Virus record (IMG/VR): IMGVR_UViG_3300031260_000020
Location: 1-39,838 of that record
DNA: 39,838 nt
From: a virus
Direction: 5' to 3' (one strand)
Within the stretch, counting starts at the first letter, position 1. Each line of letters begins with the position of its first letter. The notes beneath the pieces were generated by a model. The model searched no databases. It saw nothing but the letters and a program-made list of their open reading frames with translations, and was not told the DNA's origin. A program made the translations under genes and the position numbers. Below are positions 4,269 to 39,838 of this stretch, piece by piece.

Positions 4269-4958
4269 TTATCTTAGAAATTCACTCAGTTCTTTCTCTG
4301 ATGCGTCTTTTCCATATATCCTGTGAAATTCTCTGTGACACTTAGGGCAAAGTAAAATACCGTTACTGGGTTCACACATTAGTTCTGCATAAAATCTAAC
4401 TGGTTTGATGTGGTGAACGTGCATCCTGCTTTTTGAAGTACCACACTTTTGACATCGATAATTGTCTCTTTCTCTAACTGCTTTCAGAAAGTCTTTGAAT
4501 TTCTTTGTTGCTCTAATTCGTTCAAATTTAGAAGAGATTCCGCCTTTCCAATTTGGATGTTCTGCACCTTTTCTTCTTAGCTTTTTAGCAGATTCGGCCG
4601 CCTTTTCTTTTTGCAAACAACCGCAACTTTTAGTCTTCCCATTTTCCAACATCCAATTCATAACTTCAATTTGGTTACCACACTCACAATTGCATATCGA
4701 ATAACCCGTCCTTGAAGAAGGAGCAATAACTGTGAGCCTACCGTATTTTGATCCAACTTCAAGTTCCTTCCCCAGTTTTTGTTTTAATGCACACTTTTGG
4801 CACATATGATGACCGTTTTTCACTAACCTGCTATAAGCAACGATTCTCACTTCTTCACAGACTGGGCATTGAACCTCCACCAACTTGGTTGATGATGGTT
4901 TCAACTCGCTAACTGGTATTTGTCTTCCTCTGTATTTAACAGTTTTCGTCAGTATCAC
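4269..4958 (-). CDS. HNH endonuclease with N-terminal Cys-rich zinc-finger-like region (GTG start)
   Basis: C-terminal motif YRCQKCG...HVHHIKP...NGILLCPKCH is a classic HNH signature; RBS GAAGGAG 8 nt upstream of GTG. Confidence 0.8.
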   Translation of the reverse strand: MILTKTVKYRGRQIPVSELKPSSTKLVEVQCPVCEEVRIVAYSRLVKNGHHMCQKCALKQKLGKELEVGSKYGRLTVIAPSSRTGYSICNCECGNQIEVMNWMLENGKTKSCGCLQKEKAAESAKKLRRKGAEHPNWKGGISSKFERIRATKKFKDFLKAVRERDNYRCQKCGTSKSRMHVHHIKPVRFYAELMCEPSNGILLCPKCHREFHRIYGKDASEKELSEFLR

Positions 4959-5008
4959 CGCATCATCTCCTTCAATATATTATATCACATAATGCGGTAA
5001 GACGAATG

Positions 5009-5078
5009 ATTATTCAGATTCCAATAGAAAGGTCCTGCATTTGAGCTGTTATTCCAATTGCTGCCCTGTTGAAAGCAG
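5009..5078 (-). repeat. DGR-like template repeat (TR), non-coding, between the target gene stop and the HNH gene
   Basis: 70-bp match to 5206..5275; all 13 mismatches fall at TR positions that are A on the coding (minus) strand; in the target frame TR encodes AAT/AAC-rich ...CFQQGSNWNNSSNAGPFYWNLNN. Confidence 0.75.
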
Positions 5079-5145
5079 GCTCCTTCAATCACAGACCAAA
5101 CTTGTATGTTAGTGTACCAAAATTGTTACAAACCGGCGAAAACCA

Positions 5146-6504
5146 TTAAACCGTAGGAACATAGCAGGCGCGCGCCCCGATGCTCCGATACCGATAAGCG
5201 AACGAATAAGCCAGATACCAATAGAAAGGCCCCGCATATGAGCCGTTATACCAATGGCCGCCCCGTAGAAAGCAGTTCGTACTATAACTAGACGGTGCAT
5301 AAAGATGGTCACATACGAACTTGCTTGCAGATGGAACATCTGTTTGGATACTTTTCGGCAGGAACAGACCTTTAGAGTCAGGAACCCAATAAAAATTTTT
5401 CAGGTATCCGTTTGTAACCGGAGGAGAGCACGGTATCTGAGTATAGCCGGCCAGTGTATTGTTGTATGGCCTATCGGGAGCTACATAATAACCATCAGAC
5501 TTTATGCCTCCACCGTCTGTAAACTCCCACATGTCGCCCCACCAGTTTTCCAGCCCGAATAGAGAAACAGCCTCAAGGTTTGTACCGCCTGTGTCCACTG
5601 CTCCGAGTGAAGCCGTCGCACCTGTAAGCTCTGATTCGTTCCCTGTGCCAGATGCTTTTCCTGTTATGCCCTGTCCTATCATCGCCTGCGCATTGAAATT
5701 TGCATATTTGATAAGATAGAGAAGATTAACCATTCCGGCCTGTTTCAAATCAACAAGTCCCCATCCGGTACCCCTGTTCTCTGCCATGGTGCGAAATTCC
5801 GGTAAGGTTTGATTTGATTTTGGCTTTCTTCCCGATACCGAACGCAGCATGTGGTTTGGTAAATCACCAGTAGCTATCAGTATCGGAGTCGAACCGTCTG
5901 ACGGGTCTTCTATCCATGTACTATCTGAGATTCTTTGCACTGTACCTTTATATGCTCCTAAATATATTTCTTCGAGTATTTGCCCGCCAATTACAAAGCA
6001 GTCAAATGGTACAAACCCAGGCAGCGGTTCAGGTGAAAAATACATTCTTACTTTTTCGTCTTCCGGTGAGTAATATGTGAAATAATAGGCTTTCTTGAAC
6101 CTTGATACCACATCGCCGGCCGTGCCATCTTCAATAAATCCTGGATCACCAAAAGATGCGACCCAATTTCCAGCACTATCGAGAGTCATTCTTTCTATGC
6201 TCGCAAATGGTTCGATAAGATTAAAATCGCTAGAACCCATCCCGACGGCTTTTCCTATCCTGGTAAGCACGGGAGAGCTATCACTGAGATCCCATTCCAC
6301 ACCATATGCATCATCTGGGATATTATGAGCTATCAGCTCTCCTATTCTTGCTCCAGTCAAACCGGAATGTTTGCCATAGAAATGAGGAATATAACCGCAC
6401 CGCCCTTTGTTTGTGCGATTCAGCATTCTTGTTTGAACTTCCTGCTCTGTGAGTTCTTCTATGCTGAGACTGATCTTTTTCTTCTGCCATTTTCTGTATG
6501 CCAT
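5146..6504 (-). CDS. DGR-type variable target protein; C-terminal C-type-lectin/FGE-sulfatase-like fold; putative receptor-binding/tail protein
   Basis: C-terminus ENWWGDMWEFTDGGG...FLRGGHWYNGSYAGPFYWY...RSIGARACYV resembles FGE/CLec domains of DGR variable proteins; carries the VR at its 3' end. Confidence 0.7.
   Translation of the reverse strand: MAYRKWQKKKISLSIEELTEQEVQTRMLNRTNKGRCGYIPHFYGKHSGLTGARIGELIAHNIPDDAYGVEWDLSDSSPVLTRIGKAVGMGSSDFNLIEPFASIERMTLDSAGNWVASFGDPGFIEDGTAGDVVSRFKKAYYFTYYSPEDEKVRMYFSPEPLPGFVPFDCFVIGGQILEEIYLGAYKGTVQRISDSTWIEDPSDGSTPILIATGDLPNHMLRSVSGRKPKSNQTLPEFRTMAENRGTGWGLVDLKQAGMVNLLYLIKYANFNAQAMIGQGITGKASGTGNESELTGATASLGAVDTGGTNLEAVSLFGLENWWGDMWEFTDGGGIKSDGYYVAPDRPYNNTLAGYTQIPCSPPVTNGYLKNFYWVPDSKGLFLPKSIQTDVPSASKFVCDHLYAPSSYSTNCFLRGGHWYNGSYAGPFYWYLAYSFAYRYRSIGARACYVPTV
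5206..5275 (-). repeat. DGR-like variable repeat (VR) inside the 3' end of the target gene
   Basis: Encodes ...NCFLRGGHWYNGSYAGPFYWYLAY; differs from TR only where TR has adenine; followed by a GC-only stretch GGGGCGCGCGCC (IMH-like) absent next to TR. Confidence 0.75.
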
Positions 6505-16101: not shown

Positions 16102-16389
16102 CTATCTCAATTTTTCTAATGCACTGCCAGAGTTCGTACATGATTGCTCCTCATCAAGTTCCTTCTCCTGGTTCTCCCTCATCTGTGCGAAGAGTCTGAG
16201 ACACCGCCATGAGCAGAACTCGGCTCCAGACTCCAAGATTTTCCAGTGATGATTCATAGTCTCTACTTTTCCGCAATAGTCGCACCGATGAACCAGCAAA
16301 ATGACCTCCAAATAAAAGGGAGCCCGAAGGCTCCCTGGTGTGGAAGGAAGAAGGTAATGGAAGCGGGCCGAGAAGTCGAATCTCGACAA
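16102..16389 (-). CDS. Hypothetical Cys-containing small protein
   Basis: 95-aa ORF; true start may be internal. Confidence 0.25.
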   Translation of the reverse strand: MSRFDFSARFHYLLPSTPGSLRAPFYLEVILLVHRCDYCGKVETMNHHWKILESGAEFCSWRCLRLFAQMRENQEKELDEEQSCTNSGSALEKLR

Positions 16390-16485
16390 TCGCCTTATGA
16401 GAGCGATCTGCGTCCGCCGCTGCCCGCTTTGAAAAACGGGGCAGTTTCATTGAAGCCCCGCCGACCGAGAAACCCCGATCCATAT

Positions 16486-16907: not shown

Positions 16908-16999
16908 TGGGCGCAGCGAGAATCGAACTCGCAAGCAGCACACGATGCTGCTGTAATCTCTCGATTACTACGGTATCGGCCTGGCATACCATTGCGCCC
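16908..16999 (-). tRNA. tRNA-like gene with long variable arm (type II; possibly Ser, anticodon uncertain)
   Basis: Perfect 7-bp acceptor stem GGGCGCA/TGCGCCC, T-arm GCGAG-TTCGATT-CTCGC, extra-arm hairpin AGCAGCA-tcgtg-TGCTGCT; anticodon arm not canonical by hand folding. Confidence 0.45.
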
Positions 17000-17139: not shown

Positions 17140-17670
17140 TCAAGTCCCTTCTTTGTAGATTTTAAGATAGTCCATAGTCAATTCAAATAATCTTTCTACA
17201 TCAACCCTCACATTGCTTCCATCATCCACCAAGAGATCTTCTCCTGTGTCTTGGAAGATTCGCTTGATGTTTCTCCTCACGCCTTCGTAGTCATCAATAA
17301 GTTGGCGGGCAAACCAGATAAATGCCTTCCTAGTATTAGGAGTTAAATTATCACTTGCCCTAATTATTCTATGGCAAAAATAATGACAGTTCGGGCAAAC
17401 AAGCAGGAAATTGTCAAACGTATTCCCTCCGCCTTGAGAATATGGTATGAAGTGATGTGTTTGAAGCATTGTTGAAAATTCTCTTGGAGGTACAAATCCA
17501 CAAATGTCGCATTGTGCTGTTCGAGTTTTCAATCTAAGACTTTTGTAATGTCGGATACTCTTCACGTATATTTTCCTATTTCTTTCGTCTTCCTTTGGTA
17601 TTTCTACGTGTTTGCCTATTTTAATCGACAGAAGCAAATCTTCTACACTCATCCAACAACCTCCTCGCAA
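17140..17670 (-). CDS. HNH endonuclease (terminase-associated)
   Basis: CDICGF...HHFIPYSQGGGNTFDNFLLVCPNCH HNH motif; located upstream of the terminase genes. Confidence 0.8.
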   Translation of the reverse strand: MRGGCWMSVEDLLLSIKIGKHVEIPKEDERNRKIYVKSIRHYKSLRLKTRTAQCDICGFVPPREFSTMLQTHHFIPYSQGGGNTFDNFLLVCPNCHYFCHRIIRASDNLTPNTRKAFIWFARQLIDDYEGVRRNIKRIFQDTGEDLLVDDGSNVRVDVERLFELTMDYLKIYKEGT

Positions 17671-18757: not shown

Positions 18758-18961
18758 TCACTCAAACTCTTCGCAAGCATCATCATCAGCATCAACCTTC
18801 TTATCGTTCAATTCACACCAACCATTATTGAAGTAAGCACATATTTCGCAAGGATAATCACGGTCGTTTCTCTCGTCATCACGAACATAAGCGTAATATG
18901 ATGGCATTTCTAGCACCTCCCTTCGATTCTCTTTGAAATTGATGTGTTTGCGATATTTCAT
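18758..18961 (-). CDS. Hypothetical Cys-rich small protein
   Basis: 67 aa with CEIC...C...C pattern. Confidence 0.3.
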   Translation of the reverse strand: MKYRKHINFKENRREVLEMPSYYAYVRDDERNDRDYPCEICAYFNNGWCELNDKKVDADDDACEEFE

Positions 18962-18974
18962 CTTTTCTCCTCTC

Positions 18975-19826
18975 TCATCTCCTTTCGGTTTGTATAATTG
19001 CTTTTCCGATAATCTCGACTATCTGTGGTACTACCGCATTACCGAGTGCCGCTATTCGTTTACTTGCGTCCATCCTTCTGGGTAGCCCATCATCCACTCT
19101 ACAAAGGCTGGCTGCAATCGGTAACCAGGGGATGTCCCATCGTTCTGAGTCGGTAGGCACGTCTGATCCTCTATCAACAATGCTTTTGATAGTGTTTCCT
19201 CCAAGTTGCTCTTGTTCCGCTGACCTATTGCAACGCTGAACATGGGGTTTACCAGATTTGCTCGAGGAGTAGGGAGCATCTTGCTTATTGTTGTTGCTAA
19301 ACCGTCCCCACTCTTCTTGTTCAACCCCCGTTTGTTGTAGTTTCCCTTCACCACTGCGGTGGGCAACAACCCATACTCTGTCCCGTTTGTGTGGGGCGTT
19401 GACGGCACAAGCTGGAATAATAAACGATTGGCAGGTGTAGCCTTCATTTTCCAGGTCAGATAGCACATCATCGAGTGCCAGGCTGACGATTCCAGCAACG
19501 TTTTCGCCAACAATCCAATTCGGCCTGACAGCCCTGATAACTCGTAGCATTTCAGGCCAGAGATAACGGTCGTCTTCCTTGCTTCTTCGCTTCCCTGCTG
19601 CGGAAAAGGGCTGGCATGGGAATCCCCCGCAAATAAGGTCAACTGGCTCAAGTTCATCACCTCTCAATTCTTTTATGTCTCTGTATCTCTTCACGTCAGG
19701 CCAGTGCTTTTCAAGGACTCGGTTGCAGAAATCGTCTATCTCAACCTGCCATTTGATAGTCATTCCAGCTCTTTCAAGCCCCAAGTCAAAGCCGCCAATG
19801 CCGCTGAAAAGACTGCCGACCGTCAT
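18975..19826 (-). CDS. DNA (cytosine-5)-methyltransferase (orphan); start at internal ATG 19826 with AAAGGAG RBS
   Basis: Motifs FSGIGG (I), GFPCQPFS (IV), GENVAG (VI), QSFIIPACAVNAPHKRDRVW (VIII), LGNAVVPQIV (X). Confidence 0.85.
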   Translation of the reverse strand: MTVGSLFSGIGGFDLGLERAGMTIKWQVEIDDFCNRVLEKHWPDVKRYRDIKELRGDELEPVDLICGGFPCQPFSAAGKRRSKEDDRYLWPEMLRVIRAVRPNWIVGENVAGIVSLALDDVLSDLENEGYTCQSFIIPACAVNAPHKRDRVWVVAHRSGEGKLQQTGVEQEEWGRFSNNNKQDAPYSSSKSGKPHVQRCNRSAEQEQLGGNTIKSIVDRGSDVPTDSERWDIPWLPIAASLCRVDDGLPRRMDASKRIAALGNAVVPQIVEIIGKAIIQTERR

Positions 19827-19968
19827 CTCATCACTCCTTTGGTTTACCTTTCTCAACTTTCTTGATTGTCAGTTTCACTTTGAACGTCTCTTTCGGCGAT
19901 ATCATCAATAAGTTGTCTATTAACCAGCCATTGTCTTGTTCATAGTAAGGAATGCCATACTCATCTAC
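19819..19968. repeat. 150-bp direct repeat, copy A (about 97% identical to 20273..20422)
   Basis: Offset 454 bp; 5 mismatches in 150 bp; spans a small ORF, RBS and start codon of the next gene. Confidence 0.85.
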
Positions 19969-19974
19969 TTGCAC
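19831..19974 (-). CDS. Small ORF, truncated paralog of 20285..20461 (GTG start)
   Basis: Encodes VQVDEYGIPYYEQDNGWLIDNLLMISPKETFKVKLTIKKVEKGKPKE within repeat copy A. Confidence 0.3.
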   Translation of the reverse strand: MQVDEYGIPYYEQDNGWLIDNLLMISPKETFKVKLTIKKVEKGKPKE

Positions 19975-20168
19975 TGCTCATAAGTCTCTTTGTCTTTCCA
20001 GATCTCAATCCGCACAGTTCGGTCAGGGTAATACCAAGTGTCTAAATGGTCTACCTTAACGAAGTAGCCAAGCTCCTCAAGTTTTGCAAGTGCTGCCTGA
20101 TGCGTAGGCCGTTCAAAAGCCTCTTTAATTTTCTTCTGATCCTGCTTGTAAAATCGTTCACTTTTCAC
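19965..20168 (-). CDS. Hypothetical protein
   Basis: 67-aa ORF, GTG start preceded by GGAGG. Confidence 0.35.
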   Translation of the reverse strand: MKSERFYKQDQKKIKEAFERPTHQAALAKLEELGYFVKVDHLDTWYYPDRTVRIEIWKDKETYEQCK

Positions 20169-20280
20169 CCTCCTTCTCCTTCAACTTTCGGATCTTCCTG
20201 AGTTCGTCTTTGATGTCACCTAATTCCACAAATATGAACCACAGGATTGCAACGAAAGGAATCAATGTAAGCACCGTCAT
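20158..20280 (-). CDS. Small predicted membrane protein (40 aa)
   Basis: MTVLTLIPFVAILWFIFVELGDIKDELRKIRKLKEKEGEK; start and RBS lie in repeat copy B. Confidence 0.35.
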   Translation of the reverse strand: MTVLTLIPFVAILWFIFVELGDIKDELRKIRKLKEKEGEK

Positions 20281-20422
20281 CTCATCACTCCTTTGGTTTA
20301 CCTTTCTTAACTTTCTTGATTGTCACTTCCACTTCGAACGTCTCTTTCGGCGATATCATCAATAAGTTGTCTATTAACCAGCCATTGTCTTGTTCATAGT
20401 AAGGAATGCCATACTCATCTAC
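20273..20422. repeat. 150-bp direct repeat, copy B
   Basis: See copy A. Confidence 0.85.
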
Positions 20423-20461
20423 CTTGACAATGTGATCTTCCAGTTCAGGTATCTTCCACAT
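20285..20461 (-). CDS. Small ORF (58 aa), full-length paralog of 19831..19974
   Basis: MWKIPELEDHIVKVDEYGIPYYEQDNGWLIDNLLMISPKETFEVEVTIKKVKKGKPKE; ATG overlaps the RusA stop. Confidence 0.35.
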   Translation of the reverse strand: MWKIPELEDHIVKVDEYGIPYYEQDNGWLIDNLLMISPKETFEVEVTIKKVKKGKPKE

Positions 20462-20815
20462 CTAAGCCTCCGAGAACTCTATCTCGACCCGCGGGTTTCC
20501 TTTGTCGTATGCGACCTCTTGGATTCTGGGCATCACGTAGAAGTCGTTCTCATAGACAAAACCTTCCATTACATCGAGAAGTATTTTGAGCGTGTTGTGA
20601 CTGTCTCGCTTTCTTTTGTCCGGCATGAAGAACCACATATCGGCATATAACCAAGTGTCAGTTGTCTTCTCCCATTCAGCTTGCCGAGTCCACATCTTGG
20701 TTCTCCATGCTGCATTTGAGTACCACTCCCTTGCTGTCTTATCCATGACTCTTTTAGGCCCGATATACATGTGATTCACGCTGGGCGGTACTGGTAGGAT
20801 TAGTCTCATGTTCAC
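20462..20815 (-). CDS. rusA: RusA-like Holliday junction resolvase
   Basis: 117 aa; N-terminus LILPVPPSVNHMY and overall size typical of RusA. Confidence 0.65.
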   Translation of the reverse strand: MNMRLILPVPPSVNHMYIGPKRVMDKTAREWYSNAAWRTKMWTRQAEWEKTTDTWLYADMWFFMPDKRKRDSHNTLKILLDVMEGFVYENDFYVMPRIQEVAYDKGNPRVEIEFSEA

Positions 20816-20818
20816 CTC

Positions 20819-21247
20819 CTAGAATGGTATCTCGTCGCTGTCTGAACCCTCGGTATCGTCTGAACCGAAGAACTCGACGGATTCAGGCTCATCATGACTC
20901 GTTTGTGGCTCACTATGCTTTGCACCTTTCGTCTCCATGAACTTCACGTGAGAGGCGACTACTTCGGGAATTGACCTCTTCTCTCCGTCTTTCTCCCACT
21001 TGTTTATCCTCAGAGAACCTTCAACGAGAACGAGCTTGCCTTTAGTCATGTACTTCTCGACAAACTCTGCGGTTTTCCCGAAAGCAACTATCCTGATGAA
21101 GTCCGTTGTATTCGAATCTTTCGGGCAGTCTCTATCAACTGCGAGATTGAAGTTCGAGACTTGAGTACCGCTTGTGGCAAATTTACTCTCGGGATCGCGG
21201 GTGAGTCTACCTACCAGGATTATTTTGTTGTACGAGATTCCCATCAT
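20819..21247 (-). CDS. ssb: Single-stranded DNA-binding protein
   Basis: OB-fold pattern ...IILVGRLTRDPE...FIRIVAFGKTAEF... and acidic C-terminal tail ending DEIPF. Confidence 0.85.
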   Translation of the reverse strand: MMGISYNKIILVGRLTRDPESKFATSGTQVSNFNLAVDRDCPKDSNTTDFIRIVAFGKTAEFVEKYMTKGKLVLVEGSLRINKWEKDGEKRSIPEVVASHVKFMETKGAKHSEPQTSHDEPESVEFFGSDDTEGSDSDEIPF

Positions 21248-21735
21248 TTCGCCTCCAAGCTGTACTTGCCATTCTTGAGCCCAGTAGAACCAAAACCGTT
21301 ATCTCCCCTGTCTGTCTCGGTTTTCGGTTCTCCTCTCTGAAGGAAGAAAGTAGAGTCAATCCTCGCCACTATGAGTTGAACTATTCTGTCTCCCCGGCTG
21401 AACTTCAGAGTCTCATCCCCAGTGTTCAGCAGAAGCGCCTTAATCTCGCCCCTATATCCTGAATCAATCACTCCCCCGAGAGTCATAAGTCCAAGAGAAG
21501 CAAGACTGCTTCTGTCTTTCAGAAGCCCCACATACCCGAAAGGTATTTCGGCTTTGACTCCTGTGTGAACCACTATCAGCTCTCTGGGCGGTATCTCGAT
21601 GTCTCTATCTGTTTTTAGGTCCACTCCCCCATCATCAAAGTGTTGGTGCTCCGGAACTAATATGTCGTCTGTGAAATATAGAGTCATTTCTCCTTTCCTC
21701 CTAGAATTACCCACTCCGGGTATATTTTTCTGCAA
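21244..21735 (-). CDS. dut: dUTP diphosphatase
   Basis: Motifs GYVGLLKDRSSLA and GVIDSGYRGE. Confidence 0.8.
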   Translation of the reverse strand: MQKNIPGVGNSRRKGEMTLYFTDDILVPEHQHFDDGGVDLKTDRDIEIPPRELIVVHTGVKAEIPFGYVGLLKDRSSLASLGLMTLGGVIDSGYRGEIKALLLNTGDETLKFSRGDRIVQLIVARIDSTFFLQRGEPKTETDRGDNGFGSTGLKNGKYSLEAK

Positions 21736-23503: not shown

Positions 23504-24361
23504 TCATTCCAATGGTTTCTTTCCTGTGAGAGATTTGCTTTCTATGGGTTCTGACTCTTCTGGCATGACTTCCTCGCCTTGAACCTCGATCCAGTCTGTT
23601 TCGTCTGGGACCTCCGACATATCCTCTTTGATTTCTGTCTTGGTTGTCTCGTCGAGATCCAACTGTCTCATCAGTTCAGGAGAAAGCGGTGCGTACTTGG
23701 AGAGTCTCTTCAAAGCAGTTTTAACCCACATCTCGTCTTCCCATTCAATCCATGGGCCTTGAGTTGGAGTCATAGACTTCTTGCGAATCTTCTCCACTGT
23801 CTCGGGCGGCAGGACAACATACATATGGCCTCCGTCTTTGAAATGAGCGATAGCATAGACGCAAAGCCTCTTGCCCCTGTCGCCTGAGAAGTTTGGAATG
23901 TGTCTCAACTTCTCGTTTATTCCATACTCAAACTCGAACTCGTCGTTCTCATAGACGACATTGGATGTGACGGAGACAACCTCTCCCGAGCGGTACATTA
24001 GATTTACGAATCCCTTGGCCCTTATCTGAAACTGAGCCTCAAGGGATTTTGTCTTGCCGTTGAACCTCGGAATGATGTCACAGAAGCCAAGTGGCCCCGG
24101 TTCGAGTCCCACTTGAGCGGCCATCATCATTGCCCCAAGAAAAGATGGAATAGAACACTCCAAGAGCTTAGGATTTCTTCTCACTTCCGTAAACGCTATC
24201 CTTGCAAACCTGTCTGCATCCATGTGTTTAGGAAGAGCCTTCTGTATCTCTGGTTGCATCCTCTTTAGTAGATCCTGAAGTGTCTTGTACTTGTCGCCAT
24301 TCCCGGTCTGGACCGCCTGTGATTTAGCCTTAACGATTCCTTTTGCCTCTTCTGCCTTCAA
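23504..24361 (-). CDS. recT: RecT-family single-strand annealing protein
   Basis: 285 aa, adjacent to YqaJ-like exonuclease; RecT-like core and acidic C-terminus. Confidence 0.7.
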   Translation of the reverse strand: MKAEEAKGIVKAKSQAVQTGNGDKYKTLQDLLKRMQPEIQKALPKHMDADRFARIAFTEVRRNPKLLECSIPSFLGAMMMAAQVGLEPGPLGFCDIIPRFNGKTKSLEAQFQIRAKGFVNLMYRSGEVVSVTSNVVYENDEFEFEYGINEKLRHIPNFSGDRGKRLCVYAIAHFKDGGHMYVVLPPETVEKIRKKSMTPTQGPWIEWEDEMWVKTALKRLSKYAPLSPELMRQLDLDETTKTEIKEDMSEVPDETDWIEVQGEEVMPEESEPIESKSLTGKKPLE

Positions 24362-24364
24362 ACG

Positions 24365-25297
24365 TTACACCTCCCTGATGCTGAATCTTCTAGATTCTGT
24401 TTCTCTTGAGAACTCTTGATAGATGTTTGGCTGAGAGTTCTTCAACGCCTTTGTGTCAAGCCTTGTAGATGTATAGGATTTCCAGTCAACCCTCCACTTT
24501 TCTACATACCCGGTCTCGTTTTCTCCGAGGAGTTCTTTAAGTCGGTTTTCCTTTTCGGCCTTTTCATCTTCGAGTTCTTTGATGGATTGTTTGAGTTGTA
24601 TAAGTCTTTGAATAGTGTCTGCAGTGTCATAAGGAAGAGAAATAGAGGATTCAGGCACAGCTTTTGGATAAAGGATATTTAGGACCTCTGAACTGTCGTC
24701 CGATCCATCCATAGGTGGTGGGTTCTTATCTTCGACCCTCTTCCAGAACTCAGATTCGAGAGAAATTAGACTTGAAATGAATTCTTCGTCCCTGTCAAAA
24801 TGCTTGTGGATAAACTTGTTGCCGCCTATGAGAGCTGCAATAACTCCCCACTCGTAGCCTGTCACCGCTAGATAATGTTGAAGCTGGCAATAGGCTTCAG
24901 GCGGCACTTCGTCATCTTTCCACTCTTCCTTTCTGAATTCAGAGACATTCTTGCACTCAAGAACTCCAGGGCCTCTGTCTTTTGCGTAAATGATTCTGTC
25001 AACGTTGGCAATCATCCAGTCGTGGTCCGGATGAATCAGGATGTAGTTTCTTCTCTCAACGTAGTTACCCGAACGATCCGAGTATTCCTTCGCTACGAGG
25101 TCTTCCATCTTGTTGCCCCAATACATGGCCTCGTTCTGCTCTTCATCCTGAAACTCACCTATCTTTTCGAGATAAACCCTGATAGGAGACTTCCACTTAT
25201 TCAGGCCAATAATGGCCGCTGCGTCTGAACCTCCAATTCCCTTTCTCCGTTGCTCTTTCCATTCTTCGTATGACATTTTCTTGGTTGAGATTTTCAT
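24365..25297 (-). CDS. YqaJ/lambda-exonuclease-like recombination exonuclease
   Basis: N-terminus ...EEWKEQRRKGIGGSDAAAIIGLNKWKSP... typical of the YqaJ family. Confidence 0.7.
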   Translation of the reverse strand: MKISTKKMSYEEWKEQRRKGIGGSDAAAIIGLNKWKSPIRVYLEKIGEFQDEEQNEAMYWGNKMEDLVAKEYSDRSGNYVERRNYILIHPDHDWMIANVDRIIYAKDRGPGVLECKNVSEFRKEEWKDDEVPPEAYCQLQHYLAVTGYEWGVIAALIGGNKFIHKHFDRDEEFISSLISLESEFWKRVEDKNPPPMDGSDDSSEVLNILYPKAVPESSISLPYDTADTIQRLIQLKQSIKELEDEKAEKENRLKELLGENETGYVEKWRVDWKSYTSTRLDTKALKNSQPNIYQEFSRETESRRFSIREV

Positions 25298-39000: not shown

Positions 39001-39838
39001 TAATCCCGATGACTGCAAGTATACCTAGTGCGTTGTCTATCCAGGACTGATCGAAGTTGTCAACGAATCCACTCACAAGGAACTTCGCTGGGATCTCGAA
39101 TATCTCTTGCGCAAGCTCGACGCCAAGATCAAATTTCTTCGAGATTGATTCAGTCTCTCCGATTTCTTTGATTGTTGCGCTCATCTTCTCAAGTGCCGAG
39201 TTCGTAGTATCAAGATATTTCTGAGAGTCACCACCCAGAAGCCCCGTGAACCCAGCTCCAATCGTGGCAATACTGTTATAGACTTCTTCAGCTAGAAGCT
39301 GAATAGTATTAAGCAAGCCCTTTGTATCTTCGACTTCTGACTTGAATTTCTCAGTCAAGCCAAGCGTCAAGATAGATGCGGTGATTCCAATCACAGGACT
39401 CCCGGTTGCAAGGGTAATAAGGCCACCCCAAGTAATGACGCTGAGAAGTTTTCCTTTGAAAGTCTCAGCTTCATTCTCTCCGAACACTATCTTCGCCGGT
39501 ATCTGAAGAATGTTTGAGCCAAGATCCACAAGCCCCTGCATGAATTCTTTAACATCTGTGGCTTTGGTGAGTTCTTCCCATGAAGCCTTGACGTCACCGA
39601 ACGCCTTCTTTGTATTCTCTCCAAAGTCATCAACATTGATGCCCATACTCTTGAGAACACCATTAATAGCTTCACCAGCTTGTGATACTGTGCCTCTAAT
39701 ACCCAGCCAGTCATGATCCCACGCAACACGAAGAGTGTATAGACCCGCAATCAAGAGTGTGGGCCAAGAAAATATTGTCTTGAACACGCCCACGATCAGG
39801 CCGCCCCCGGTAACAACTATCTGTGAGAGCAAGCTCCA
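36017..39838 (-). CDS. Tail tape measure protein, C-terminal 1271 aa; N-terminus continues at 1..999 across the junction; contains a lytic-transglycosylase-like segment and a Gly-rich linker
   Basis: Frame open to the window edge; segment LAYAESKYLIGAKGGEGRGAFQFEPIG...AWNRGFGN resembles SLT-domain motifs (near 37800-38100); GGGGGSGG linker near 38400; largest gene, after the chaperone frameshift site. Confidence 0.8.
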   Translation of the reverse strand, partial: WSLLSQIVVTGGGLIVGVFKTIFSWPTLLIAGLYTLRVAWDHDWLGIRGTVSQAGEAINGVLKSMGINVDDFGENTKKAFGDVKASWEELTKATDVKEFMQGLVDLGSNILQIPAKIVFGENEAETFKGKLLSVITWGGLITLATGSPVIGITASILTLGLTEKFKSEVEDTKGLLNTIQLLAEEVYNSIATIGAGFTGLLGGDSQKYLDTTNSALEKMSATIKEIGETESISKKFDLGVELAQEIFEIPAKFLVSGFVDNFDQSWIDNALGILAVIGITKFLGGSWRLAVGLALISDVILGDDVSSNGLVNSAVKALEAGAATWMITKSGTLGLGVSLVVAGWETGKEFGNWLVDAGIGDSWDQWLKDTLGDFYTDTIAGLKTETFLDQLNASGIYIGMTILAGLKWPFDKMLDFGAWVWEAVKNTALTIYEAGLEIGNQLFEGIKSFFSFGWLQELLGLGVKKPSGGGGGGSGGFENFVPAGGGESIRFKKESMAYPELEGMYAMAGFPISGMEIRTTPLSKEITDMIDRMIATAKQLDAYSGISSDPTTIITPAMEKLTFDLINALNQSLLDPTVVASLAYAESKYLIGAKGGEGRGAFQFEPIGIEQAKKWFPTNWDYETAATDTVYSTLAAEKTLDWLMDSFGSLRDAIIAWNRGFGNTQNWIAGGEDLSTLPDATKILLTNFMVEFENLINGDWSSLNDELLAHIAEVADAVNFFVENTPEVIAKSFVGDPKTFDVMGTAAEEQAVTQKETVITLENLFVEAQAANSYLNAIANRLSGIRDLLWQRLPVTAGMASGGYISGAGSPTDDLIPAMLSDGEFVVNAKSTEKWLPFLKAINAQGLSAGGLAGLKKQIKGFATGTATQIDVGSVGGGQLTWWDIILNTLTSAVGDYAETAKKDFGMIKNALGDLLKTIGLDIDAPFTELDKLTSQFQELEKPSDDVFEGFFLSIAETRDRLSSISDVFGETEIKRISRQMSFLDSAMSDLEKQFTNGEIELGEYTERVVYLRNISRDLGNSLNDLKKKIERSSIVGDSSEIFKVDENTGELVSVFANLRPGMEGLTDVMGNLATAGELFAVGLLNQVVNLEAINMLLNPITTILTGVMEILGPIINLLKPLGDALISIGRVFASTFNLFGAGLLILQPFFKALGWLGATISFVADQLVLFVDGIFVWLSGLPFIGGLFSPLLSEDQRANMGRSISERMEDYELPQSSTGQTFQAGSSQHITNNYHFEFRGNDILTEDDESARRFADLIYKNLRDRGVELQVG
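39698..39838. repeat. Second copy of the 141-bp terminal repeat
   Basis: Identical to 1..141; implies a unit genome length of about 39697 bp. Confidence 0.9.

Follow-up and report, generated by a model that had tools for sequence, protein, structure and literature searches.

A 150-nt direct repeat in a RecT-encoding phage genome as the probable scar of phage-to-phage recombination behind a small conserved gene

For the lambdoid phages, Susskind and Botstein are said to have framed the ideas of modular evolution and of a 'linker sequence', and Hendrix and colleagues reportedly argued that illegitimate joins can fall at any position and that the junctions surviving selection are those at gene boundaries. 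The module boundaries of mosaic temperate phages have been attributed to relaxed homologous recombination by the Rad52-like recombinases Red-beta, RecT and Erf (De Paepe et al. 2014, PMC3945230). In T4-type phages, PeSL regulatory cassettes have been described (Arbiol et al. 2010, PMC2839356; Comeau et al. 2014, PMC4122927). Here, we analyzed a window of 39,838 nt (the whole stretch of DNA under study), which is a complete 39.7-kb genome of a RecT-encoding, siphovirus-like phage whose relevant genes all lie on the minus strand. Its biggest internal repeat duplicates most of a 58-aa ORFan gene, p58, together with the start of whichever gene follows. We consider it probable (about 0.68) that this repeat is the scar of phage-to-phage recombination that inserted a cassette of the type found in a related metagenomic locus (L008) behind p58, by one homologous exchange and one non-homologous rejoin.

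The features of the locus are as follows.

18975..19826, minus strand: C5 cytosine DNA methyltransferase, the second cassette (PF00145, E = 1.6e-46; ATG at 19826)
19819..19968, minus strand: repeat copy A, the same p58 segment as in copy B, lacking codons 1-13, with the stop, the Shine-Dalgarno sequence and the ATGACGGT that starts the methyltransferase
19831..19974, minus strand: truncated p58, a 47-aa ORF whose only possible start is a GTG overlapping the end of p67
19965..20168, minus strand: p67, remnant of a 127-aa gene, its TAG stop supplied by copy A
19968..19969, minus strand: non-homologous joint, L008-type ...GAGCAGTGCAA joined to p58 codon 14 (GTAGATGAG...)
20126..20127, minus strand: site of a 172-nt deletion relative to L008 (L008 positions 570-741 missing), which shifts the frame of the 127-aa gene
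20158..20280, minus strand: p40, 40 aa with a hydrophobic N-terminus, first gene of the putatively inserted cassette, its start overlapping copy B
20273..20422, minus strand: repeat copy B, p58 codons 14-58, TGA stop, Shine-Dalgarno sequence and the ATGACGGT that starts p40
20285..20461, minus strand: p58, the intact 58-aa ORFan 'hinge' gene, containing most of copy B
20462-20815, minus strand: RusA-like resolvase, part of the p58 left module (Pfam/PHROG scans)
20819-21247, minus strand: SSB, part of the p58 left module (Pfam/PHROG scans)
23504-24361, minus strand: RecT-family annealing protein (PF03837, 2e-44)
24365-25297, minus strand: YqaJ/RecE-like exonuclease (PF09588, 4.7e-44)

A repeat search and base-by-base comparison delimited two copies of 150 nt each at a spacing of 454 nt, the only two in the 39.8-kb window. 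An earlier note on this DNA had described near-identical 150-bp repeats of ~97% identity with five mismatches; the length and identity hold (97.3%), and the mismatches number four (19854, 19872, 19875 and 19881). All four fall inside one 28-nt patch with an exact run on either side, 87 nt and 35 nt long, and homology breaks off sharply on both sides of the repeat. Because the longest exact run spans 87 nt, as against 13–17 nt in shuffled genomes (20 mononucleotide shuffles), a chance origin is excluded. Each copy comprises the 3' three-quarters of p58 with its stop codon, the ribosome-binding site (RBS) and the opening 8 nt of whichever gene follows. Both end in ...AAAGGAGTGATGAGATGACGGT, which holds the Shine-Dalgarno sequence, the TGA stop, the ATG start and five further nt, and p40 and the methyltransferase therefore both start Met-Thr-Val. 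The content of the copies was read correctly in the earlier note: a small 58-aa ORF and a 47-aa truncated paralog, one per copy and on the minus strand, each followed by the RBS and start of the next gene (the methyltransferase for copy A, the 40-aa protein for copy B).

In length and identity the pair resembles the TR/VR pairs of diversity-generating retroelements (DGRs), and all four mismatches are non-synonymous, with charge changes (K to E, K to E, L to V, E to K) and no synonymous change among them, as might also be expected of maintained, diverging paralogs. Such a functional pair is nevertheless scarcely credible. From copy A to copy B the coding strand changes A to G, A to G, C to G and G to A, a pattern that is not adenine-specific and not confined to template adenines; the ORFs tested include no reverse transcriptase, and only 304 nt separate the repeats; the repeat does not end at the stop codon but continues over the RBS and into the gene that follows; the two alleles of the patch also occur in single-copy genomes; and in the second copy 13 codons are missing and no start is convincing. 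A DGR reading of the pair is thus already contradicted.

Other mechanisms were examined and rejected. Slippage or unequal crossing-over would give a simple tandem duplication with the whole unit present twice, whereas here the repeat covers only 150 of 454 nt and the 304-nt spacer has no second copy in the window. The insert, which encodes only p40 and a gene remnant, has no inverted repeats at its flanks, and the duplication measures 150 nt against the 2–15 bp expected of a transposable element or MITE. An integron-like site-specific cassette system was discarded, with no integrase among the ORFs scanned and no inverted repeat or significant structure in the repeat (fold z-scores of –0.29 and +0.71). 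A regulatory or RNA element was likewise set aside: the segment 18900-21300 yielded no site resembling a promoter or a terminator, and Rfam gave no match.

The related loci place p58 at the center of the variation. Across 36 related metagenomic loci, p58 is single-copy in each, has two kinds of left neighbor and at least five kinds of right neighbor, and these occur in mixed combinations. Homology among the relatives stops at the ATG of the next gene, ahead of five unrelated genes. Two relatives, L007 and L008, share an identical p58 allele with different neighbors, and a third (L118) contains a second, independent non-homologous breakpoint within p58. The best explanation is that p58 is a small conserved crossover hub of this phage group, where modules vary on the left and accessory cassettes interchange on the right, each joined at the same p58-stop/RBS/ATG junction. 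The gene shows a pN/pS of 0.16 over 20 alleles. Its AlphaFold2 model reaches a pLDDT of 55.5, a deep profile search of 1.84 billion proteins returned three cluster representatives only (one spurious, a eukaryotic repeat protein), and a prophage/host search of 185,579 species genomes found no match. Pfam and PHROG scans gave no match for p58, p40, p67, the 127-aa gene or p156, and for p168 a PHROG of unknown function as the sole match.

This arrangement recalls the Rad52-recombinase mosaics (PMC3945230) in three respects: a short conserved unit, here p58 with RBS and ATG, separates modules that can be exchanged; the same hinge allele is seen beside differing neighbors; and the window encodes RecT, an exonuclease and RusA (Rap-like), gene classes shown or discussed for those systems. 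RecT and the YqaJ/RecE-like exonuclease (23504..25297), judged by sequence, represent the phage's own putative short-homology recombination system. The locus differs from those mosaics in that a partial duplication of the hinge stacks two alternative right-hand cassettes, and in that dependence on the recombinase is read here from the genes.

Both single-cassette arrangements occur in nature, in L007 and L008, which come from other samples. The order in L008 is RusA, p58, p40, 127-aa gene, 65-aa gene and MazG; in L007 it is UvrD-helicase, p94, p58 and methyltransferase, with the same p58-to-methyltransferase junction (GGAGTGATGAGATGACGGTCGG). Along stretches of 146 nt and 158 nt the window cassette matches L008 at 100%, with this homology ending exactly at the boundary of copy A, and p40 is 100% identical in amino acids to the gene after p58 in L008. 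The C-terminal 53 aa of p67 are likewise 100% those of L008, its N-terminus being in another frame owing to the 172-nt deletion; a homologue search with p67 returned the window's own protein alone, and L006 carries a full-length homologue (124 aa) of the 127-aa gene. For annotation, the 47-aa and 67-aa ORFs are best treated as probable remnants. Neighboring segments of the window have differing closest relatives: L003 for RusA (98.9%), L033 and L037 for dUTPase and SSB (91–93%), L008 for the cassette (100%) and L007 for the methyltransferase (91%).

The methyltransferase has a history of its own. Isolated phages match the window at this gene only, at ~70–74% nucleotide identity, and the nearest methyltransferases (P0012, P0014, P0018 and 80 IMG/VR loci) have unrelated genes upstream, so the methyltransferase is itself a wandering cassette. 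A nested +1 ORF also sits inside it. L007 is the sole p58-methyltransferase adjacency found, with another left module and the 91% figure applying at the nucleotide level; no other p58-methyltransferase or p58-p40 junctions were found in IMG/VR.

Within the repeat, identity is distributed in three parts. Copies A and B agree at 100% over the 87-nt 5' part, for which none of 32 other loci exceeds 92% identity. In copy B the patch (20308-20335) matches L007 and L008 at 100%, whereas in copy A (19854-19881) it matches, also at 100%, the allele common to most relatives. Both patch alleles, P0001 and P0002, circulate in nature and were seen in single-copy genomes. In the 3' 35 nt, both window copies are one base off L008 (GGT vs GGG), and the donor was therefore L008-like and not L008 itself. 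These patterns separate the two parts of the duplication claim made earlier. The copies are indeed recent relatives, as their shared 87-nt allele indicates; a simple duplication is countered by the unique spacer, the L008 identity of the copy B patch and the non-homologous joint.

That joint, at 19968/19969, is abrupt. Identity to L008 is 100% up to 19969 and is followed by p58 codon 14, with a microhomology of 0–3 nt depending on register. Its position inside two genes, not at a gene boundary, suggests a recent event that has not yet been trimmed. Exact searches for a junction 22-mer and 25-mer found neither in IMG/VR or JGI metagenome contigs, look-ups of the exact p58, p67 and methyltransferase proteins gave no match, and the whole arrangement was found in this one metagenomic contig only. 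Such a singleton could be an assembly artefact, a chimeric join of co-occurring strains at their shared p58 sequence, and p58 varies between strains and forms a branch point, with several metagenomic contigs broken there (L031, L033, L034 and L037); metagenomic assemblies can be expected to break at this region or to be confused by it. We regard an artefact as highly improbable here. A de Bruijn mis-join needs a shared k-mer, and since 0–3 nt of homology is too little for one, the joint is predicted to be present in the reads. The 87-nt run is also shorter than the 141-nt terminal overlap of the contig (which equals the assembler's k-mer size if the overlap reflects k), and the four mismatches tell the copies apart.

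We propose the following course for the insertion, inferring the order of its steps. The ancestor was most likely RusA-p58-methyltransferase, a recipient that, with the hybrid p58 allele, was not found. It would have taken up DNA of an L008-type phage (p58-p40-127-aa gene). At one end, homologous exchange may have occurred within p58, between the 87-nt 5' part and the 28-nt patch; at the other, the 3' end of the 127-aa gene would have been rejoined non-homologously to p58 codon 14, either by break-and-join or through a template switch during replication. The result is the order p58 - p40 - gene remnant - truncated p58 - methyltransferase. Since an RBS and start codon lie within the duplicated 150 nt, translation can still begin at p40 as well as at the methyltransferase, at the latter in its native context because copy A was retained, and this is probably why the recombinant survived. 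On the evidence of gene content and the literature, the phage's RecT/exonuclease pair probably helped the insertion; Rad52-like phage recombinases, two RecT proteins included, drive mosaicism on short, diverged homologies (PMC3945230). Insertion is one order of events that the sequence would allow, a two-phage cross followed by gene conversion another, and the 172-nt deletion may have come at any stage.

A single non-homologous crossover between co-infecting phages, RusA-p58-p40-127-aa gene... and ...p58-methyltransferase..., would need one illegitimate event only, in which the 127-aa gene is joined at its end to p58 codon 14. Each of the parental arrangements is found in nature, and the four mismatches would simply be the two natural alleles P0001 and P0002. 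We think this unlikely, given that the hybrid 87-nt 5' allele is present in both copies and in 0 of 32 other loci: an unobserved allele would have to be shared by both parents, or the 5' parts of p58 would have to be homogenised later by an extra gene conversion.

The joint and the allele pattern also bear on the idea that p40 and the remnant form a homology-flanked mobile cassette like PeSL, excised as a 454-bp mini-circle and reintegrated behind p58. Campbell-type integration of a circle with one 150-nt copy would give exactly repeat-cassette-repeat, mini-circles of ~400–1400 bp have been demonstrated for PeSL in T4-type phages (PMC2839356), and the p58-stop/RBS/ATG junction is common to five different downstream genes. 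However, the circle's own joint, between the end of the 127-aa gene and p58 codon 14, needs a prior illegitimate event and was found nowhere else in IMG/VR or JGI metagenome contigs; the flanked cassette occurs in only 1 of 37 genomes or loci; the 5' part of copy A should hold the donor allele, yet both copies hold the same lineage-specific one; and the repeat lacks promoter and terminator elements. A mobile cassette of this kind therefore seems very unlikely to us. The PeSL likeness itself goes some way: small ORFan genes of a variable region lie between direct repeats that bring expression signals (Shine-Dalgarno, ATG), recombination at the repeats would delete or insert ORFans, and a mini-circle is conceivable here. 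It ends where the repeat proves to be mostly coding sequence of a conserved gene, present in two copies and not dispersed, with no promoter or stem-loop terminator in the unit, and where the genome is that of a RecT-encoding, siphovirus-like phage and not of a T4-type myovirus. A broader version, in which the p58 3' end with stop, RBS and ATG serves as a portable recombination adapter, and a cassette between two adapters moves as a 454-bp circle excised by RecT and inserts behind p58 in any relative, is quite unlikely. If true, it would be for siphoviruses what the PeSL mini-circles are for T4-type phages, only based on coding sequence and not on promoter and terminator.

With insertion by one homologous and one non-homologous step as the favored reading, the two copies may now be a substrate for single-strand annealing by the RecT/exonuclease pair, by which 454 bp would be lost and p58 would come to lie directly before the methyltransferase. 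Such instability, also suggested in the earlier note, is plausible: at 87 and 35 nt, the exact runs are longer than the shortest pairing quoted for Red-beta (23–27 bp) and RecA (31–34 bp) (PMC3945230), the phage carries the RecT and exonuclease genes, and the predicted product, p58 followed directly by the methyltransferase, occurs naturally in L007. No variant of the same genome lacking the 454 bp was found.

The joint at 19968/19969 and the 172-nt deletion, both made without significant homology, agree with the model ascribed to Hendrix and colleagues, as do the truncated p58 and p67 left as junk at the joint and the independent p58 breakpoint of L118; the window differs from that model in that its joint lies inside two genes and not at a gene boundary. 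The locus is a clear but ordinary case of phage mosaicism and reveals no new mechanism. Its value lies in what has been preserved. Mosaicism is usually inferred from clean module boundaries, whereas here the single-cassette forms, the hub gene and an untrimmed joint are all visible, the last still showing its shortened hub gene, a gene remnant put out of frame and a junction made without homology. As a simple substrate supplied by nature, the locus would also allow RecT-dependent deletion to be measured. With the joint and both forms in view, accessory genes such as orphan methyltransferases, MazG and small membrane proteins can thus be stacked, not just swapped, behind one conserved junction.

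An exact direct overlap of 141 nt joins the two ends of the window (39,838 nt; 1-141 = 39698-39838), so the phage genome it represents is complete, measures 39,697 bp and was either assembled as a circle or is terminally redundant; the length of the overlap suggests an assembler k-mer of 141. A repeat search and base-by-base comparison recovered the pair of direct repeats described in the earlier note, copy A (19819-19968) and copy B (20273-20422), 150 nt each and 454 nt apart, with four mismatches (19854, 19872, 19875 and 19881) rather than the five counted there. The pair is the largest internal repeat in the genome. Similarity between the copies ends abruptly on both sides, and their longest exact run is 87 nt, compared with 13-17 nt in shuffled genomes. 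All genes around the repeat, assigned by ORF calling and Pfam/PHROG scans, lie on the minus strand, in this order of transcription:

21244-21735, minus: dUTPase
20819-21247, minus: SSB
20462-20815, minus: RusA-like resolvase
20285-20461, minus: p58, a 58-aa ORFan
20158-20280, minus: p40, 40 aa with a hydrophobic N-terminus
19965-20168, minus: p67, a 67-aa ORF
19831-19974, minus: 47-aa copy of p58, GTG-initiated, without the first 13 codons
18975-19826, minus: C5 cytosine methyltransferase (MTase), start at 19826
18758-18961, minus: p67b, a small Cys-rich protein

Each repeat copy comprises p58 codons 14-58, the TGA stop codon and AAAGGAGTGATGAGATGACGGT, and thus carries a Shine-Dalgarno sequence, the start codon and five more nucleotides of the next gene. 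That gene is p40 behind copy B and the MTase behind copy A, and both proteins begin Met-Thr-Val. Because the duplicated segment holds the ribosome-binding site (RBS) and start codon, p40 and the MTase both keep a native translation initiation region, which is likely why the recombinant was viable. The truncated p58 (47 aa), if translated, would begin at its sole start codon, a GTG overlapping the p67 stop codon.

Both single-cassette arrangements exist separately in related metagenomic loci. L007 has the order helicase-p94-p58-MTase, and its p58/MTase junction is that of copy A; in L008 the order is RusA-p58-p40-127-aa gene-65-aa gene-MazG. Read along the minus strand, the window and L008 are almost identical in sequence from midway through p58 copy B onwards, with a GGT/GGG change as the sole difference inside the repeat and 100% identity over the 146 nt that span the remainder of p40 and the beginning of the 127-aa gene. 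At 20126/20127 (minus), inside the 127-aa gene behind p40, 172 nt of L008 (570-741) are absent from the window, with no obvious microhomology at the deletion site; beyond it, identity is again 100% over 158 nt, to 19969. At the 19968/19969 joint, L008 reads ...TGCAA/AAAGGGAGG and the window ...TGCAA/GTAGATGAG, with essentially no homology between the partners. In the window, p58 thus resumes at codon 14 with GTAGATGAG, and p67 meets its TAG stop at the first codon past the joint. Since both L008 and the more distant L006 have the 127-aa gene in full length, p67 is a frameshifted, 3'-truncated remnant, at whose start an alternative-frame GTG (20168) covers the first 14 codons. The window arrangement was found in no other sample, as an assembly artefact would also predict; an artefact is nevertheless unlikely, since a mis-join in the assembly graph requires a shared k-mer, which the joint lacks, and the 87-nt exact run is shorter than the contig's 141-nt terminal overlap.

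The allele pattern of the two copies limits the possible histories. All differences fall within a 28-nt patch (20308-20335 versus 19854-19881, minus; FEVEVTIKKVKKG and FKVKLTIKKVEKG), and all four are non-synonymous (K/E, K/E, L/V and E/K; none synonymous), the four substitutions changing charge; this could reflect selection on a p58 surface. The patch of copy B is 100% identical to the L007/L008 allele (protein P0001), that of copy A to the allele of nearly all other relatives, and both also circulate in single-copy genomes. Over the repeat's 87-nt 5' part, the two window copies are the same; this stretch combines two common allele types, and its identity to 32 other loci does not exceed 92%. 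A single allele of the window lineage is therefore the ancestor of both copies. The earlier note had read the pair as a recent duplication, yet a simple tandem duplication is ruled out because the 304-nt spacer is unique. The simplest history compatible with these sequences would be the uptake of an L008-type cassette by a RusA-p58-MTase ancestor, through one homologous exchange within p58, at a point separating the 87-nt part from the patch, and one non-homologous rejoining that led from the 127-aa gene's end back to codon 14 of p58. Breakage and joining, or two template switches in the course of replication, would have the same outcome. As a close variant of this cassette uptake, two phages may instead have crossed, with gene conversion afterwards.

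We searched IMG/VR, ENA and JGI metagenomes for p58 and obtained 36 related loci, each with exactly one copy (blastn, word size 7). The family is tiny in a profile search and has no match in Pfam or PHROG. With a pN/pS of 0.16 across 20 distinct alleles, the p58 sequence is conserved as a protein; p58 is a genuine gene and serves as a recombination hub. On its left lies RusA in some loci and a UvrD-type helicase with a 94-aa protein in others. Its right neighbour is most commonly a 146-156-aa gene, and otherwise p67b, a 'MATYKR' gene followed by p168, a 'MKYRENV' gene, the MTase (L007) or p40 (L008), with left and right types mixed in various combinations. Before five unrelated downstream genes, homology stops at ...AAAGGAGTGATGAGATG, precisely at the next gene's start codon. 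The identical allele P0001 occurs at L007 2063-2239 and L008 235-411, two samples apparently from one ENA study judging by accession numbers, with all neighbours different (helicase and p94/MTase versus RusA/p40), which is direct evidence for p58 as the exchange point. In L118 (1466-1633; JGI Ga0209407_1032978; protein P0009), with the backbone RusA-p58-p67b, the first 19 codons of p58 have given way to the RBS and opening 16 codons from an HTH-regulator gene; this foreign segment is 94.6% identical to L006 370-425 over 56 nt, making L118 an independent illegitimate (non-homologous) breakpoint inside p58. Four contigs (L031, L033, L034 and L037) end inside p58, two of them matching the window at 100% identity until they break off, as expected of a strain-variable branch point.

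The phage encodes a RecT-family protein, a YqaJ/RecE-like exonuclease, SSB and RusA as recombination genes, the first two located as follows:

23504-24361, minus: RecT-family annealing protein
24365-25297, minus: YqaJ/RecE-like exonuclease

Rad52-like recombinases, including RecT proteins, drive mosaicism on short, diverged homologies in lambdoid phages, with minimal efficient pairing segments of 23-27 bp for Red-beta and 31-34 bp for RecA (PMC3945230). The exact runs in the repeat (87 and 35 nt) exceed both, so the loss of the intervening 454 bp that the earlier note had proposed is plausible by single-strand annealing. The predicted product, an intact p58 directly before the MTase, is the arrangement present in L007.

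Neither sigma-70-like promoters nor terminator-like sites were found in 18900-21300, the RNA fold of the repeat was not significant (z = -0.29 and +0.71), and the window had no Rfam family match; the regulatory PeSL cassettes of T4-type phages (PMC2839356) are therefore an analogy only, the sole likeness being direct repeats with expression signals around small ORFans. A diversity-generating retroelement was rejected: the mismatches are not adenine-specific, no reverse transcriptase occurs among the ORFs scanned, and the repeat extends into the next gene. Neither inverted repeats nor a transposase emerged from the repeat search and Pfam/PHROG scans. A role of the p58-3'/RBS/ATG segment as a portable adapter for cassette circles driven by homology appears improbable.

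Elsewhere in the genome, a further direct repeat (5015-5078 versus 5212-5275; 64 nt, 84% identity) was detected. The C-terminal 'AGPFYW' motif region of a tail protein gene (5146-6504, minus) recurs in a 35-aa ORF (4985-5092, minus), which separates that gene from one for an HNH endonuclease (4269-4958, minus). This is another partial 3'-end duplication, adjoining a possible homing endonuclease. Two tRNA genes lie in the interval that separates another HNH endonuclease (17140-17670) from the terminase region:

16358-16428, minus: tRNA-Met (CAT)
16908-16999, minus: tRNA-Ser (CGA)

One possibly spurious ORF, of 109 aa (16154-16483), overlaps tRNA-Met.

Within the MTase gene (18975-19826, minus), a 202-aa ORF (19052-19660, minus) is open in the +1 frame, as also in L006 (1364-1939) and L038-L117. 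It matches the 'DNA methyltransferase' PHROG phrog_1008 (3e-33), and the main frame matches phrog_363. Homologues, always in the +1 frame, were present in 80/80 diverse IMG/VR MTase homologues (39-63% main-frame identity; E 1e-16 to 1e-62). In shuffles of synonymous codons that keep the MTase protein (200 per gene, 65 genes), the median +1 open stretch was ~97 codons versus 211 observed, and in 39/65 genes 0/200 shuffles reached the observed length; the +2 frame resembled the shuffles, with no excess. Both nested CDSs are annotated as methyltransferases in Paenibacillus phage Likha, the pair is not discussed in the paper on the Likha group, and literature searches gave no description of such an ORF. 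It may be a conserved overlapping gene, a candidate that merits study of its own.

The repeat locus works like the module exchange of temperate phages by Rad52-like recombinases, with the addition of a classical illegitimate join. As a recent and well-resolved case it clearly illustrates a known process and does not constitute an element of a new kind. Its hinge gene p58 marks a point at which assemblies of mixed phage populations break.
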